From the NCBI GenBank assembly GCA_964016885.1, contig OZ024740.1:289788001-289852000 (forward strand): a DNA stretch of 64,000 bases. Reading direction: 5' to 3'. Shown piece by piece: positions 10,864 through 24,321 of this stretch. This stretch comes from Eledone cirrhosa (Eukaryota). The translations under genes and the position numbers were made by a program. Numbering within the stretch: the stretch's first letter is position 1; every line of letters begins with the position of its first letter. The notes under the pieces were generated by a model. It saw only the letters and a list, made by a program, of their open reading frames with translations. It was not told the origin of the DNA and searched no databases.

Positions 10864-11657
10864 TTTTATAGCCGGGTTTAATTGTTTTTTTGTGTGGTTG
10901 ATTATGCTAATTGGAAGAGGAGATGGAGTATATATCTTATCAAATGATTCTATGGACATAATTTATAGTATATTGCTCTGATTATTTAATTTATTAATTC
11001 ATCATGGAGCCACATCGTGAATGGTTGCCAAAAACACATATATATCTATGACTTTTTCTAGTTTGTGTATATGTAAATCTTTATATTTGATAATCTCCCA
11101 TAAGGTCGAGATGCAATTTAGGCAATATTGGGCTGCGCTTTCTAGCAACCAGCCCACTCACTGTAAGGCACCAATCACATTCTTTTTGACTTGACCACTG
11201 CCACGTCACAGTTCTTAGCCATTTTGAATTCGTTTCTGGCGGGGATCATTTAAGAAAAATCTTAGTCCAGTGAGTTTGTTTCCTGATGAGTTCGAAGCAC
11301 GAGATTTTATGCTTGATAGGATATTTCCGAAAGCGAACGAAACCCTAAAGGGTAGAAACGTAATCCTGGTATGTGTATATGCATTTTTTCTTCTAACTTT
11401 AATTTTATACCTAATTGTGTATGATTGACGATATATTTAATCGATTTCCACGTGCTATTGAAATTCTGGGTAAATATTCTATAGCTGTTGATCGCGAATA
11501 GATGGCTGTCGTTTATTTATCTATTATTTCTTCATAGGGGCCTTTTAATCTTATAGCCGGGTTTAATTGGTTTTTTGTGTGGTTGATTATGCTAATTGGG
11601 AGAGGAAATGGAGTATATATCTTATCAAATGATTCTATGGACATAATTTATAGTATA
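10864..11657 (+). mobile_element. Terminally redundant (~105-bp direct repeat, ~685-bp period) HHR element in (TA)n
   Basis: ttatagccgggtttaatt...ggacataatttatagtata occurs at 10866 and 11551, with an HHR inside. A homologous fragment lies at ~53785-54040. Confidence 0.8.
11278..11359 (+). ncRNA. Type I hammerhead ribozyme, canonical core, extended helix II
   Basis: gtttc CTGATGA gttcg...cgaac GAAA ccc-taaa-ggg TA gaaac. Helices I, II and III all pair perfectly; GUA cleavage triplet. Confidence 0.9.
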
Positions 11658-12117
11658 TATATATATATATATATATATATATTATATATATATATATATA
11701 TATATATATATATATATATATATATATATATATATATATATATATATATATATATATATATATATATATATATATATATATATATATATATATATATATA
11801 TATATATATATATATGTCTGCATAACTAAAACTTTGTAGATAGCAGCTGTTTTCAGGTTATGTAACTGTTATAGAAACACGTGTCAATAAATTCCTTTCA
11901 ACTAAACTGTATCCATTCAAATCTTTCTATATATATATATATATATATATATATATATATATATATATATATATATATATATATATATATATATTATATA
12001 TATATATATATATACATATATATTTACACACATATATATATATATATATATACATATATATTTACATATATATATATATATATATATATACATATATATT
12101 TACACACATATATATAT

Positions 12118-12470
12118 ATGAAAGCATCTTGCTGCCGTGCCGACAGTAGTTTACGCGAGCGAAACCTGGAAGAGCACGGCAAAGATAGAGAGACGGCTGA
12201 ACGCTTTCCACCAGCGGTGCCTGCGAATGATCCTTCGTGTGTCCTAGCGCGACCGAGTGCGAAACGAAGAAATCCTGGCTGGCCACATTTTGTGGCGACC
12301 CGACGAGCTACACACGAAAACAGCGATGAACTGGACTCCACCTGGCGGCAAACGGAGATGGGGTTACCCCAGGATAATCTGGCGACGAACGTTCCGAAAA
12401 GACCTGATGGCAGCCAACACCACTTGGCACGGACGCGAAAAAGCCTCCACTGATCGTGACAATGAGCGGT
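12118..12470 (+). mobile_element. Degenerate RTE LINE RT C-terminal fragment
   Basis: [49 protein letters not shown]. Confidence 0.75.
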
Positions 12471-13089
12471 GTTGGATTTTGTTGTTAAGCTGACTCCCTC
12501 GCCAACGACTCCTTTTTTCCGAAAATGGAGGTGGTCAGGGAGGGGAACACTTGGAGTCACAGAGAAGCGCTTCTCAGCCTTTTAAATTAATAGAAATGCA
12601 CCCATTGGGGATCACGAAGAAGACTTTTATCCTGTTTACAGCTAATGTGACCTACAACATCCCCACAACATCGCCTTTCTCCCCGAAAGGAAGACGGGAG
12701 GGACGAGGGTACCTATAAAGTATGTGTGAAAGTACACCAACAATGGTTCCGATGCTGCCATGTTTGCACTACAAAAATGGAATATATTCGATGAGGTGAC
12801 CAACTTCCAACATGGCCGATATCAGCTGTAGAGAGGTGGTGCAGGGGTTGACCCACCGATTTTCCCAGCCTAGGAGGTTTCTTCTGTGGGGATTTTTTCT
12901 TTGTTAAGTTTTTCTCGTTTGTTTTTGATTGATCTACATCCGACTCACTCACCAACGACTCCTATTTCCGAAATCGGAAGCAAAGAGTGAATGGGGCCCT
13001 CTGAGTTACAGATAAGCACCTCTCAGCCGTTTATATTTATAGAAAAGCAAAGCAATCCCTTGATACTGAAGGATATTTTGATCCTTCAT

Positions 13090-13590
13090 CATTCTCTACT
13101 ATTGTGGAAAGCGTTGTAAACTTAAGTATTCCCCAATTTCGAAATCCACCATTCCAACAAAGAGTGGTTGTGTGAAAGAGCAATCCTTACAGCCACTTAA
13201 AAACATCACACTTTCTAAACACAACTTTCGATTGAAGAAGGTCACAGCCATGATTGTGCAATGGGACGCGTATAGTTGTGACTGAGCTACAGCCTAACAT
13301 TATCGAAGCAAATATCTTCACTGGATGTGGTAAGGGAGACATCTTATTTATATCTAGAATACTGCTAATACAGATACCCCTTTTCCTTTCAAACGATTTC
13401 AATTCCTAGTGAGAGTCAGTTACGCAATGACAAGTCCCAAGGTCAAACACTGCAGACTGTCGGTCTCCATTTAGAAGAGGGCTGTTTCTCACATGATCAA
13501 TTGTATGTTGCCTAGTCCAGAGTAGGAAGCCCCCACAACCTCTTCCTATATGCTAAAAAAGTTAAAAACATTATATATACTGAAGTTCAG
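13090..13590 (+). pseudogene. Helitron PIF1 helicase C-terminal remnant
   Basis: IIEANIFTGCGKGDILFISRI..FKRFQFLVRVSYAMT..SQGQTLQTVGLHLEEGCFSHDQLYVA*SRV. Confidence 0.8.
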
Positions 13591-13837
13591 TAAATGTTTT
13601 ATAATTTTCGTTGAATACATTTTCTATTATTTTCTTTATTACTTTCTGTATTTAGATATTCTAGATAAATTTTTTAAAGTTATATCATGCAATATTTAAT
13701 TACCTTTTAACATCTTTTATTTGAAGAAAATTTGGCATTACGATAGATGCTAATAGGTGCCTTATAAATAGACTTAAGCACAGTACAGACCAGGGTTATA
13801 TATATATATATATATATATATATATATATATATATAT

Positions 13838-13997
13838 AGTAAAATGTTCAACCCCGACGGCAGAGCTCAAGCCGTTTCGACGGCTATTTCTGGACTGAGG
13901 GGTTGAACATTTTCCTATTACCCACTCTACTACCCTAAGTATTGAGTACTCTGGTGCGTTATGGTCCATCTGGTTCCTTACCACACTTCCTTCGTTA
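13838..13997 (+). mobile_element. Family A mini-element with inverted 5' arm
   Basis: An inverted arm (13838-13898) is followed by a sense copy beginning ggggttgaac at 13899. Flanked by (TA)n. Confidence 0.8.
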
Positions 13998-21930: not shown

Positions 21931-22103
21931 TATATATATATATATATATATATATATATATATATATGTGTGTGTGTGTGTGTGTGTGTGTGTGTGTAAA
22001 AGAGGGGTCTCAAAATGAAGGACATAAAGCGGCCATTACGTCCTGGAGGAGAGGCCACAGTGGGCCAGACGTGATGATGGATGATGATTTTCACCAGTTA
22101 TAA

Positions 22104-22318
22104 TAATTTCTACTATAGGCACAGGCATGAAATTGAGGGTTTAGTGTCCCGTCGATTACATCGATCCCGGTTCACAACTGGTACTTCATTTATCGACCCC
22201 AAAAGGATGAAAGGCAAAGTTGAGATCGGCGGAATTTGAACTCTGAACGTAAAAGCGGAAGAGGTACCACTAAGCATTTAACCAGATGTGCTAACGATTC
22301 CACCAGCTCACCGCCTTA
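22104..22318 (-). mobile_element. tRNA-derived SINE (older subfamily), TSD attttcaccagttat
   Basis: SINE consensus with a flanking direct repeat. Confidence 0.8.
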
Positions 22319-22587
22319 TTTTCACCAGTTATGATGAAATATGAAAGATTGGTTCTACCACGGGCCATAGAAAACTAGTTCGCGGGCCGCATGTTTGAGC
22401 CCCCTGTTGGAGAGATAGATAGAGGTGTACCAAACACACACACATTCCTTACTCTCTCTGTCTCTAACACTTTCTCTCTCTCTCCCACTCTCTCTCTCTC
22501 TCTCTCTCTCTCTCTCTCTCTCTCTCTCTCTCTATATATATATATATATATATATATATATATATATATATATATATATATATATAT

Positions 22588-23195
22588 AAGGACTGTCCAT
22601 TTATTTTTGAGACTCGAAACCGATTCGGTAAAGGTAACCATAGTAAGTACAGTGAATTTTTTGAAATTTATTTTGAAACTTTTTCTTATTTGCTAAACCT
22701 TGATTATATATGTTCTGGCTCGTTAATTTATTAACCTGCCATTGAACCACATTGGCATATGGTTGGACAATACTTGTGTCCCTATACGCTTTTTGCGTGT
22801 AGGGATATATACTTTATTATTATTAATCTGCTCCTGGTCGAGATGAAATCTGGTCGTTTTGACTACTGCTATTTATAGTGGTAGTAGACTGACCTCCCTG
22901 CCTCTGCCTTCTATCTTTGCACGCGGCACTGGACAGAATTGTTTCACATCATTCATTCTCATCTCGGGAACAATTTTGAATAGCGCCAGTTCGTAATTTT
23001 AACTCGGGAATTTTATATTCTCCGAGTGAAAAGAACCTTCTGACGAGAGTTTATCTTTTCAATGGAAGCCCGCAAGGACTGTCCATTTATTTTTGAGACT
23101 CGAAACCGATTCGGTAAAGGTAACCATAGTAAGTACAGTGAATATTTTGAAAATTATTTTGAAACTTTTTCTTATTTGCTAAACCTTGATTATAT
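22588..23195 (+). mobile_element. Terminally redundant (~120-bp repeat, 486-bp period) HHR element in (TA)n
   Basis: aaggactgtccatt...aaaccttgattata occurs at 22588 and 23074. The first copy begins inside helix II of the HHR. Confidence 0.85.
23035..23121 (+). ncRNA. Type I hammerhead ribozyme, canonical core, long helix II insert
   Basis: acctt CTGACGA gagtt...gactc GAAA ccga-t-tcgg TA aaggt. Confidence 0.88.
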
Positions 23196-23370
23196 ATATA
23201 CATATATATATACATATATATATATACATATATAAATATATATATATATATATATATATATATATATATATATATATATATATAGTAATAATAATAAAAT
23301 TGAAGACTAAAATCCAAAGATTCTTTGCTTAAACTTTAATCTGTTATTTTAATAAATATATATATATATA

Positions 23371-24321
23371 TATAATAGAATAATCGAGTATCGGAAAATC
23401 AGCTCACGAATTTACGATAAACAAATCCGAAATGAGTGGCAGAGGGCTCAATAATTCAGATAAATCAGAGCTATAACTATCGTTAAGATACCAACACACA
23501 AAGATTATGCCTAAATCACCCGTGCAGCCGAAAAATAACGACCAGGAAGATTCGGGTCACTCAGATAAAATATCAATAAATTAATAATTTATATGAATGT
23601 AAAAACTTACCCGGACCCACTAGAAAGGTGGTAAATCTAGCTTCTTGGGTTTCTGCTATTCCTTAATCCGCCCCCTATCAGCCCACATAAAAATATATAA
23701 GACTTCTAGGGAGAGGAGGGACCGGAACAACTTTATCAACGGGCCATGTCCGACGAATGTAGAAGTTAACTATAGCTAGACGCACATGGAGTCCAGCAAG
23801 GGAGATAACCTCTATATTCGCGAAAGATAATCGGTAATGTGGAATACACATATCGAATAAGAGTGCTCGATAGACATGTTAAAATAAACAGGAGCTATTC
23901 ATCATTCAATAGAATCGACAAAAAATGAACAATAAAATTAACTGGTCAATAGCTATGTCTAGAGCTAAATATAATAGAATAATCGAGTATCGGAAAATCA
24001 GCTCACGAATTTACGATAAACAAATCCGAAATGAGTGGCAGAGGGCTCAATAATTCAGATAAATCAGAGCTATAACTATCGTTAAGATACCAACACACAA
24101 AGATTATGCCTAAAATCACCCGTGCAGCCGAAAAATAACGACCAGGAAGATTCGGGTCACTCAGATAAAATATCAATAAATCAATAATTTATATGAATGT
24201 AAAAACTTACCCGGACCCACTAGAAAGGTGGTAAATCTAGCTTCTTGGGTTTCTGCTATTCCTTAATCCGCCCCCTATCAGCCCACATAAAAATATATAA
24301 GACTTCTAGGGAGAGGAGGGA
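23371..24321 (-). mobile_element. Partial-tandem (~350-bp repeat, ~600-bp period) HHR element, family C, in (TA)n
   Basis: 23373-23722 is repeated at 23972-24321. Homologous to 31212-31768, with tail remnants at ~24620-24830 and ~30950-31110. Confidence 0.85.
23609..23744 (-). ncRNA. Large type I hammerhead ribozyme, U3-A8 variant
   Basis: gcccg UUGAUAA a-guuguucc...ggaauagc-a GAAA ccca..cuaga..ucuag uggg UC cgggu. Confidence 0.75.

Follow-up and report, generated by a model that had tools for sequence, protein, structure and literature searches.

Non-coding, terminally redundant repeats in (TA)n tracts of Eledone cirrhosa are probably inserted by Penelope-like elements

Metazoan retrozyme units are reported at 170-400 nt (Cervera & de la Pena 2020, PMC7229834), and a preprint gives a range of 51-972 bp for retrozyme units (Li, Clavereau & Pollet 2026, 10.64898/2026.07.22.740005). 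The non-LTR retrozymes are described as AT-rich units without coding capacity that each contain a single type I hammerhead, lie head to tail, reach high copy number and co-occur with Penelope-like elements (PLEs), and their proposed cycle is target-primed copying of circular or oligomeric RNA. PLEs themselves are described as forming partial tandems and 5'-truncated inverted copies, with a tail on one side and a bias for microsatellites (Craig et al. 2021, PMC8557442).

Three non-coding repeats, E1, E2 and E3, in a 64,000-nt window of the ~3-Gb Eledone cirrhosa genome (GCA_964016885.1, contig OZ024740.1, forward strand, 289,788,001-289,852,000) resemble these retrozymes. They differ in that most copies have 0.2-1.9 units rather than forming long arrays and that (TA)n is the only insertion target. 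Their hammerheads, which Rfam does not detect, have helix II interrupted by an insert of 40-55 nt, and the E3 family has no hammerhead. An earlier note on this DNA considered the units longer than most animal retrozymes; at 486-685 bp they do exceed the 170-400 nt of PMC7229834, but they fall inside the 51-972 bp of 10.64898/2026.07.22.740005. With the endonuclease-positive PLEs, as described in PMC8557442, they share pLTR-like partial tandems, an inverted 5'-truncated copy adjoining the 5' end, an extension ("tail") at one end only and a microsatellite insertion bias that includes (TA)n. Unlike them, they have no RT or GIY-YIG ORF, their tail is 72-123 nt against 30-40 bp in PLEs, and their unit measures 0.5-0.7 kb where that of PLEs measures 3-4 kb.

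Coordinates count from the first letter of the window, and u denotes a position within one unit. The E1 copy (10863-11658, plus strand) is 1.16 times a 685-bp unit, with u1 at 10974 and the 3' end at 11658; the stretch ending at 10973 (10863-10973) matches 11548-11658 at a spacing of 685 with 96% identity. E2 (22588-23197, plus strand, u1 at 22712, 3' end at 23197) is 1.26 times a 486-bp unit, and 22588-22711 matches 23074-23197 at a spacing of 486 with 98% identity. E3 (23371-24322) lies on the minus strand and is 1.59 times a 600-bp unit, with 23356-23722 matching 23955-24322 at a spacing of 599/600 and 96-100% identity. Its fixed 3' end is at ~23371 and its variable 5' end at 24322, an orientation read from genome matches in which the query start is constant and the query end varies. 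These spacings bear out the unit plus partial extra unit that the earlier note saw in each element, and its (TA)n on both sides and its lack of ORFs are found as well. E1 is flanked by (TA)46 (10770-10861) on the 5' side and by (TA)n of ~235 repeats with 77% matches (11649-12119) on the 3' side, E2 by (TA)28 (22533-22588) and (TA)47 (23191-23284), and E3 by (AT)150 (24323-24622) on its 5' side and a short (TA)n (~23358-23371) on its left. No ORF of >57 aa is contained within E1, E2 or E3, the longer listed ORFs extending out into flanking (TA)n/(CT)n, and E3 has no tRNA. The E2 monomer RNA (z = -6.0) and the E3 unit (z = -4.1) fold more stably than shuffled sequences.

A motif script finds a complete type I hammerhead in E1 (11277-11360, plus strand), with predicted cleavage after A11354. 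It has helix I tgtttc/gaaacg, the box CUGAUGA, GAAA, helix II gttcg/cgaac with a ~40-nt insert, and helix III accc-uaaa-gggu. The complete type I hammerhead found in the same way in E2 (23035-23121, plus strand, predicted cleavage after A23116) has helix I acctt/aaggt, the box CUGACGA, GAAA, helix II gagttt/gagactc with a ~50-nt insert, and helix III accg-auu-cggu. The motif is intact in 13 copies of the E1 family and in 51 of the E2 type (N7 = U in 4 of the 51), and a fourth family, E4, a relative of E1 with 71% identity, also bears it. The core sequences match exactly, and each of helices I-III varies among E1, E2 and E4 yet remains paired; this covariation is also seen within the E4 family, where helix II is gtccg/cggac or atccg/cggat. 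Rfam models give the E1 and E2 hammerheads no score whatever and find no hammerhead anywhere in the window, either at the gathering score or at E <= 10. The calls depend on the script, on the motif recurring among family copies and on covariation. As a chance control, E3-family and PLE loci totalling 363 kb gave 4 matches with the script, of which 1-2 adjoin E2-type copies.

One full hammerhead per element, as previously claimed, is correct for E1 and E2 but not for E3, where the script detects none on the plus or the minus strand even when one mismatch in the core is tolerated, and Rfam has no match. The claim that the 5' partial copy starts inside helix II, made for two of the elements, fits E2 only. 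There the partial unit holds the 3' half of the hammerhead (22588-22635, plus strand, offset by 486 from 23074-23121); it starts within the helix II insert, so that the cleavage site is kept and the CUGANGA box is gone. The E1 partial copy is the final 111 nt of the unit and stops short of the hammerhead, which lies outside it. Since the window copies of E1 and E2 hold one complete hammerhead each, neither could free a unit-length RNA by cis cleavage.

E1 and E2 have a module in common, at u4-144 in E1 (10977-11117, plus strand, including the ggtcgagatg block) and u3-138 in E2 (22714-22849, plus strand), which aligns over 143 nt with 65% identity (E = 3e-10). It is larger than the ggtcgagatg-type module first described, and its presence in both means that E1 and E2, at least, are not the unrelated elements they were taken for. 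The 3' part of the E2 module holds the patch u100-114 (22811-22825), the alternative 3' end of inverted partner copies.

First-look candidates in the genome, which are lower bounds on copy number, come to at least 5254 for E1, 2468 for E2, 2382 for E3 and 4062 for E4. The 40 best E1 candidates that were scored are mostly 93-97% identical, and full-length scored E2 matches 94-97%. Pooled distinct copies number 79 for E1, 77 for E2 and 59 for E3; they derive from the best-scoring 40 candidates per search and are biased to window-like copies rather than being a random census. The canonical 3' end is present in 67/79, 59/77 and 58/59 of these, respectively. (TA)>=4 is on the 3' flank in 61/79, 65/77 and 50/59, and on the 5' flank in 47/79, 27/77 and 37/59. 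The 5' ends are scattered across the whole unit in all three families, with copy lengths of 0.2-3.15 units. Variable 5' points, which the earlier note proposed to look for in genomic copies, are therefore found in each family together with a fixed 3' end (215 copies). Slippage or unequal exchange at the DNA level beside unstable (TA)n could also produce partial duplications without reverse transcription; every copy is bordered by (TA)n tracts that are long and unstable, and E3 has an extended array. This is scarcely credible, since thousands of dispersed copies have one 3' end to the base and differing 5' ends, a pattern that contradicts DNA-level duplication, and since in inverted pairs the two 3' ends face outward and map to two defined patches. 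The data support E1-E3 as dispersed retroelement copies rather than local duplications, and the extra partial unit as a 5' continuation of the reverse transcript beyond one unit.

PLEs are abundant in this genome, with 10597 first-look candidates for PF01541 (GIY-YIG), and 150 of the 150 scored are above the cut-off. (TA)>=5 lies downstream of the EN-bearing ORF in 27 of 30 PLE loci, and ~11 of those loci have a common 3' terminus, ...ctccctgttttca, directly on (TA)n. E1-E3 belong to dispersed non-coding families in (TA)n and were probably inserted through target-primed reverse transcription (TPRT) by these (TA)n-targeting PLEs, from an RNA that spans more than one unit without a break. A nick by the GIY-YIG endonuclease in a (TA)n tract would expose a (TA)n 3' end, which would base-pair with a UA-rich patch in the RNA of the element, and this patch would become the fixed 3' end (...AGTATAT in E1, ...ATTATATAT in E2 and ...CTATTATAT in E3). 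Reverse transcription would proceed 5'-wards for a variable distance, often beyond one unit, and the resulting "1.x-mer" would be the terminal redundancy. The template of the longer copies may be ligated circles or uncleaved multimers. Because of this proposed mechanism, E1 and E2 would be non-LTR retrozymes in the published sense.

It is very unlikely that E1-E3 are just pLTRs or solo ends of ORF-bearing PLEs and not separate non-autonomous families. Their target, their tandem/inverted architecture and their hammerheads match those of PLE pLTRs, vertebrate retrozymes are described as related to pLTRs (10.64898/2026.07.22.740005), and 20 of 269 family loci have PLE-like coding fragments no more than 1.5 kb away. 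However, the coding match is continuous with the unit in 0 of these 20, and in none of the 269 loci is a unit joined to PLE coding sequence, the nearest ORF-like match being ~190 nt off on the opposite strand. In these loci the homologues are thus not merely the pLTR ends of ORF-bearing PLEs that the earlier note had allowed for. Among 30 PLE loci no autonomous PLE shares sequence with the E1-E3 units, save for a neighbouring E4 insertion, and no hammerheads are found in 20 PLE loci with Rfam or in 30 with the motif script. Units also run head to tail without an intervening ORF, up to 3.15 units.

Head-to-head inverted pairs number 15 for E2, and in 13 of these one arm stops at u486 and the other at u100-114. 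E1 has 5 such pairs, with partner arms that stop at u72-113, and the E4 partner site is the E1 main site; none occur among the 59 sampled E3 copies. The second arm of the E1 and E2 pairs ends 72-123 nt further 3'. Under TPRT by PLEs, the second DNA end in E1 and E2 would sometimes prime at another UA-rich patch at that distance, giving a head-to-head pair with one extended arm as the counterpart of the PLE tail. Twin priming of LINE-1, reportedly described by Ostertag and Kazazian in 2001, is similar in its two outward 3' ends and internal 5'-5' junction, as if both target ends prime. It differs in that the primers here would be (TA)n ends on two UA-rich patches, and the elements are non-autonomous and PLE-associated.

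Copies of more than one unit make up 6/23 and 4/25 of two 3'-anchored samples for E1, 5/24 and 6/15 for E2, and 1/21 and 4/19 for E3. The longest have 2.45, 3.15 and 2.64 units, respectively, and E3 also has an array of at least 12 units. The junctions are seamless, and indels are not in excess at the unit boundary (rate 0.002 in 44 E1 copies and 0.000 in 52 E2 copies; 0.006 and 0.010 at the hammerhead site; 0.017 and 0.010 unit-wide). In the published retrozyme model (PMC7229834), taken strictly, hammerhead-cleaved monomers would be ligated to circRNA, and reverse transcription circling more than once would yield every copy of more than one unit. This is possible, if somewhat doubtful. Both the unit boundary and the hammerhead site are crossed seamlessly, copy lengths go smoothly through 1.0 unit without a spike, and unit mismatch is 4.4, 3.5 and 2.6% within copies against 7.1, 4.9 and 7.0% between them. 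The related families E1 and E4 are also linearised at separate positions on one circle-like map, each at the other's alternative 3' end. However, ribozyme-less E3 yields the same 1.x-2.6-mers and long arrays, the same partial tandems are described in autonomous PLEs and in Naiads without hammerheads (PMC8557442), and the E1 5'-end boundary is abrupt at the cleavage site, though a circle has no end. Since E3 lacks a hammerhead yet has copies that span 1.1-2.64 units as well as the array, hammerhead-made circles are unnecessary for the architecture. Of the earlier suggestion that reverse transcription passed more than once around a circle, or jumped, the transcript running past one unit stands, but the circles are not needed.

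The 5' ends of E1 have a hot zone at u381-397 (11354-11370, plus strand), which begins at the hammerhead cleavage site and holds 18 of 79 starts against an expected <= ~2.6. No 5' ends (0/79) fall in u367-380, and three copies have their first base precisely at u382, with a clean junction. Because the 5' ends accumulate at and just 3' of the predicted site, the hammerhead, at least in E1, likely cuts in vivo. E2 has no significant pile-up at its cleavage site (9/77 in u382-416, some before and some after the site). E3 has a hot zone at u342-372 (23594-23624, minus strand; 16 of 59 copies), at and just 3' of a long hairpin. Since this zone is similar without a ribozyme, the one in E1 could reflect RT stopping at a structure instead of run-off at a cleaved end. 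Run-off would suit linear templates of unit length (hammerhead-cleaved or with a fixed transcription start), with copies of more than one unit arising when RT, on reaching the 5' end of one RNA, continues at the 3' end of another. The E1 pile-up starts exactly at the cleavage site and recurs in copies that are 1.41-1.50 and 2.45 units long and again end at a hammerhead site, and end-to-end jumps between cleaved monomers would restore a seamless sequence. Unit-length linear templates are nevertheless unlikely, since the 58-100 copies that span the cleavage site have no excess of extra or missing bases there and E2 has no pile-up. The apparent 5' ends at u1 are a blast effect, the last ~25 nt of the preceding unit being too short to report, and the flanks of three such copies (L097, L100 and L165) run on into the previous unit.

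The pile-up of E1 5' ends directly 3' of the hammerhead cleavage site is a new detail. The architecture of more than one unit is generic to PLE insertions, as described for PLEs in PMC8557442. E1 and E2 resemble ordinary animal retrozymes and are likely spread by the PLEs of this genome, and E3 appears to be a ribozyme-less passenger of the same machinery.

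E1 and E2 on the plus strand and E3 on the minus strand each consist of one unit plus a partial unit, as the earlier note proposed and a repeat search of the window confirmed for all three. E1 (10863-11658) has a period of 685 and repeats its terminal 111 nt at 96% (1.16 units), E2 (22588-23197) has a period of 486 with 124 nt repeated at 98% (1.26 units), and E3 (23356/23371-24322) has a period of 599-600 with 367 nt repeated at 96-100% (1.59 units). (TA)n bounds both ends of each element. No ATG ORF longer than 57 aa was found inside the units, which thus have no coding capacity, and no tRNA-like head of the kind that marks tRNA-derived SINEs was seen, with no tRNA called by ARAGORN in 9000-26000, E3 included.

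E1 and E2 carry hammerhead ribozymes (HHRs). A descriptor script requiring exact CUGANGA and GAAA, three helices and H at the cut gave three matches in the 64-kb window, two of them strong. The E1 hammerhead lies at 11277-11360 (helices I/II/III of 6/5/4 bp), with the cut after A11354, between u381 and u382 (u being the position in the repeat unit, counted from the unit start u1). The E2 hammerhead lies at 23035-23121 (5/6/4 bp), with the cut after A23116, between u405 and u406. The third match, at 14785-14709 on the minus strand, has helices of 3/3/3 and was taken as chance. Rfam reported no hammerhead and no other ribozyme over the whole window at the gathering score, and at E <= 10 over 10500-24700 and 22585-24325 it again gave no hammerhead, the matches being microsatellite look-alikes of miRNA models. 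The E1 and E2 motifs have the conserved core, three helices and H, but fall short of a curated covariance-model score. The likely cause of the Rfam miss is the long helix II insert, 40-55 nt in both.

The same script found the intact motif in 13 further E1-type copies, 51 E2-type copies and 7 copies of E4, an E1-related family elsewhere in the genome. It found no hammerhead in 98 kb of Penelope-like element (PLE) loci, and only four matches in 265 kb of E3 loci, one or two of which are neighbouring E2 copies. The helices covary between E1, E2 and E4, with sequences that differ by family and pairing that is kept: helix I occurs as gtttc/gaaac, acttc/gaggt and acctt/aaggt, helix II as gttcg/cgaac, gtccg/cggac, atccg/cggat and gagt/actc, and helix III as accc/gggu, acc/ggu and accg/cggu. 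In E4 copies outside the PLE locus L091, the intact hammerhead has a palindromic helix III (accauggu). The window copies of E1 and E2 hold one complete hammerhead each, so neither can release a monomer in cis. The window copies are dead-on-arrival, none of them having more than one complete ribozyme, and the locus itself is ordinary.

E3 has no recognisable ribozyme. A scan allowing one core mismatch found no hammerhead on either strand, and the CUGANGA word is absent from both. A plus-strand look-alike at ~23745-23845, ccatgtCCGACGA...cgcGAAAgataatcggtA followed by atgtgg, was rejected for its U4C change and for the absence of helices II and III. A minus-strand look-alike, CUGAUAG...GAAA-hairpin-GUC (u285-352), was rejected for want of G8/A9, helix II and helix I; it is conserved in every E3 copy seen, and its CUGAUAG is placed within a stable stem by the predicted MFE fold. 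E3 is oriented on the minus strand, since in the genome search its query start is fixed and its query end variable. An array of at least 12 E3 units lies on another contig, C263. The observation thus stands as regards the repeat architecture and two of the three hammerheads: a full HHR in each unit is true of E1 and E2 but not of E3, and a 5' partial copy starting inside helix II, described for two elements, was found only in E2. Lacking a hammerhead, E3 is not filed as a retrozyme.

The families are large. First-look candidates in the 3.0-Gb genome number at least 5254 for E1, 2468 for E2, 2382 for E3 and 4062 for E4; only the ~40 best were scored per search, and sampled copies were drawn from these. 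Three samples were pooled per family, one from a whole-element query and two from queries that used short 3' segments as anchors, a design that avoids selecting for copy length in the anchored samples. Dropping duplicates and locus-edge copies left 79 E1, 77 E2 and 59 E3 copies. The 3' end falls at the canonical site, the 3' end of the unit (u685 in E1, u486 in E2), in 67/79, 59/77 and 58/59 copies, respectively. (TA)n of at least four repeats is present at the 3' flank in 61/79, 65/77 and 50/59, and at the 5' flank in 47/79, 27/77 and 37/59. The 5' ends of the sampled copies are spread over the unit in all three families, bearing out the variable 5' points that the earlier note had raised.

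Lengths run from 0.2 units up to 2.45 (E1), 3.15 (E2) and 2.64 (E3), and the majority of sampled copies are shorter than one unit. Copies longer than one unit make up 6/23 and 4/25 of the two anchored samples for E1, 5/24 and 6/15 for E2, and 1/21 and 4/19 for E3. An apparent spike of exact one-unit copies was rejected as a blast reporting artefact, since copies starting at u1 run into the previous unit in the flank; lengths of sampled copies pass 1.0 unit without a spike. The junctions between units are seamless, with an indel rate at the unit boundary of 0.002 in E1 (44 copies crossing) and 0.000 in E2 (52 copies). The rate is 0.006 and 0.010 at the HHR site and 0.017 and 0.010 unit-wide. 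Two units of one copy mismatch at 4.4% (E1), 3.5% (E2) and 2.6% (E3), and units of different copies at 7.1%, 4.9% and 7.0%.

The 5' ends of E1 pile up at the ribozyme cut. Of the 79, 18 lie in u381-397, a zone for which the anchors predict ~2.6 at most, and none lies in u367-380. Three copies start precisely at u382 with a clean junction, and copies from this zone measure 0.41-0.59, 1.41-1.50 and 2.45 units. We read the zone as the mark of transcripts running off self-cleaved RNA at its 5' end, with 0-15 nt lost at 5'-junction formation. A structural stop at the folded ribozyme could also place ends here, as could a transcription start; both are possible. Read as run-off, the pile-up would be an indirect pointer to hammerhead self-cleavage, and the end statistics suggest that cleaved linear RNAs also serve as templates. 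In E2 a hot spot at the cleavage site is not significant, with 9/77 ends in u382-416, lying on both sides of the cut within 35 nt. Separately, four E2 copies, two of them without a TA flank, start in the CUGACGA box of the hammerhead (u329-333; window 23040-23044).

E3 has a hot zone of its own, with 16/59 5' ends in u342-372 (window 23594-23624) against ~3.9 expected, located at a long hairpin and immediately 3' of it, where no ribozyme is recognisable. A joint reading, which we put forward as tentative and rather doubtful, is that the DNA records ribozyme action: the abrupt stop of E1 5' ends at the cut would mean that a Penelope-type reverse transcriptase (RT) copied both self-cleaved linear and uncut or circular RNAs, the E3 zone would be either a site of RNA processing that escaped recognition, perhaps with a new self-cleaving motif, or a point where the RT is programmed to stop, and the hammerhead would be dispensable for spreading.

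E1 and E2 have a common stretch of 143 nt (65%, E = 3e-10) at corresponding unit positions (E1 u4-144, E2 u3-138), and the ggtcgagatg module that the earlier note saw in both falls within it. Neither E1 nor E2 is significantly similar to E3 (best E = 0.04). E4 has 71% identity with E1 across the unit and was met beside a PLE in L091, where the E4 copy occupies 6775-7994 (G000:C1:91431274-91432493). Its main 3' end is at the E1 equivalent of ~u85, another point of the unit than that of E1, and the main 3' site of E1 (E4 q559) is an alternative end in E4, used by opposite-strand arms.

Head-to-head inverted pairs number 15 in the sampled E2 copies, five in E1 and none in E3. Of the 15 E2 pairs, 13 combine an arm ending at u486 with a partner ending at u100-114, and the partner arms of E1 end at u72-113. 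Together with the E4 ends, these positions point to two UA-rich priming patches common to the families, ~72-123 nt apart, with the families differing in which patch is the main one.

PLEs are abundant in this genome. A search with PF01541 (GIY-YIG) gave 10597 first-look candidates, and all 150 that were scored passed the cut-off. L091 contains RT-like and GIY-YIG endonuclease (EN) ORFs, with the EN at the C-terminal end of the ORF run and the element bracketed by (TA)n. Among 30 PLE loci, (TA)n of at least five repeats lies downstream of the EN ORF in 27, the terminus ...ctccctgttttca directly on (TA)n is common to ~11, and another terminus occurs in four. Blastn of the E1-E3 units against the 30 GIY-YIG loci returned only a neighbouring E4 insertion and one 28-nt TA-rich match, and no hammerhead was found in PLE loci by Rfam (20 loci) or the descriptor script (30 loci). 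ORF peptides from the PLE loci give matches of at least 60 aa in 20 of the 269 family loci, and in none of the 269 is an E unit continuous with PLE coding sequence; the attachment of a copy to an ORF, which the earlier note had considered, was thus not seen. With no ORF in the units and no such continuity, the E families appear to be passengers rather than PLEs.

L091 also holds an inverted recurrence of its (TA)n-flanked PLE: the 5' 456 nt (2310-2765) return at 96.5% 3.5 kb downstream (6319-6774), and the inverted copy adjoins the E4 copy across a short (TA)n. This adjacency may reflect either co-insertion or independent insertions into the same microsatellite by chance.

The end pattern, the (TA)n target, the seamless junctions, the inverted pairs and the abundance of PLEs are observed directly, as are ribozyme motifs in some families but not in E3. 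Insertion probably proceeds by target-primed reverse transcription, in which a PLE RT/EN would nick (TA)n and the (TA)n end would anneal to a UA-rich patch of the element RNA. The 5' termination would be variable on a template that runs unbroken through more than one unit, and occasional second priming on the downstream UA-rich patch would give the inverted arm. Copies longer than one unit could come from a circle, an uncut multimer or end-to-end jumps, which are not separable from DNA alone. Since the ribozyme-less E3 also makes copies longer than one unit, such copies need no ribozyme, which argues that hammerhead-made circles are not required. In the published retrozyme model, tandem units are transcribed, processed by the HHR and ligated to circles, which are copied by target- or RNA-primed synthesis into tandem cDNA, probably with help from PLEs (PMC7229834). 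The circular or multimeric template proposed earlier corresponds to this model and is partly testable here; as a necessity it is weakened by E3.

Like non-LTR retrozymes, the E families have head-to-tail dispersed units, no coding capacity and co-occurrence with PLEs; the type I hammerhead expected in every unit is present in E1, E2 and E4 but not in E3. The PLE insertion pattern of partial tandems, an inverted 5'-truncated copy, a one-end tail and a microsatellite bias (PMC8557442) is likewise seen here, although E3 lacks inverted pairs, and PLEs carry an RT and GIY-YIG ORF whereas E units do not. Retrozyme RNAs are given as 170-400 nt (PMC7229834), while a 2026 preprint lists consensus lengths of 51-972 bp and monomer proportions from 0 to 1, and describes sequence relatedness of Xenopus retrozymes to pLTRs, the PLE terminal tandems (10.64898/2026.07.22.740005). 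E1, E2 and E4 thus fit as new retrozyme families, and E3 fits the PLE-passenger pattern but not the ribozyme definition. Two details go beyond the cited retrozyme and PLE accounts, as far as those were consulted, and are not claimed to be unpublished: the E1 5'-end boundary at the ribozyme cut and the two-patch rule for inverted arms.

The window has several other repeats. A 53-nt stretch occurs at 13836-13888 and 16540-16592 (89% alike), at or near (TA)n both times, and a similar sequence starting ..aaaagtatgacccc follows (TA)n beside an E3 copy in another sampled locus, L151; it is possibly another (TA)n-targeting family. At both 23285-23345 and 15733-15760 a (TA)n tract is followed by the same short sequence, aataataataaaattgaagactaaaatcc..., and the stretch that separates E2 from E3 may be a fragment of a further TA-associated repeat. 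A SINE-like 65-nt segment in three copies (80-83%) with a 217-bp tandem pair lies at 19454-19779 and 22189-22253, where ARAGORN called no tRNA. A near-perfect hairpin of ~320 nt (14974-15294), which Rfam matches to a plant miRNA look-alike far below gathering (E = 1e-9), is probably a MITE-like inverted repeat. A LINE-type retrotransposon at 35882-39066 (plus strand) has AP-endonuclease (PF03372, E = 1.4e-10) and reverse transcriptase (PF00078, E = 3.7e-29) domains in two overlapping frames, either frameshifted or two ORFs. A 525-aa frame at 57223-58800 (plus strand), likely a Helitron fragment, has at its end a Helitron helicase-like N-terminal domain (PF14214, E = 8.8e-14). Very strong GC skew (0.62-0.83) marks 28001-30000 and 44001-48000, which are G-rich and low-complexity or satellite-like, and long open frames on both strands lie within such DNA at 44142-47272. 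Contigs of three other sequence sets, whose kind is guessed, match E2 over only 33-36 AT-rich bases at below 95% and are then unlike it, and one further set, whose coverage of E2 is very deep, resembles DNA from the same species; these comparisons count neither for nor against transcription.

The movement of animal retrozymes and the role of the hammerhead are still inferred mostly from co-occurrence with PLEs. The E. cirrhosa genome provides a clean natural comparison, with four abundant, fairly young (TA)n-targeting families, three with a hammerhead and one without. The 3' sites are fixed in sampled copies, and the DNA itself shows where each 5' end lies; these end statistics place the PLE insertion signature on ribozyme-bearing passengers.
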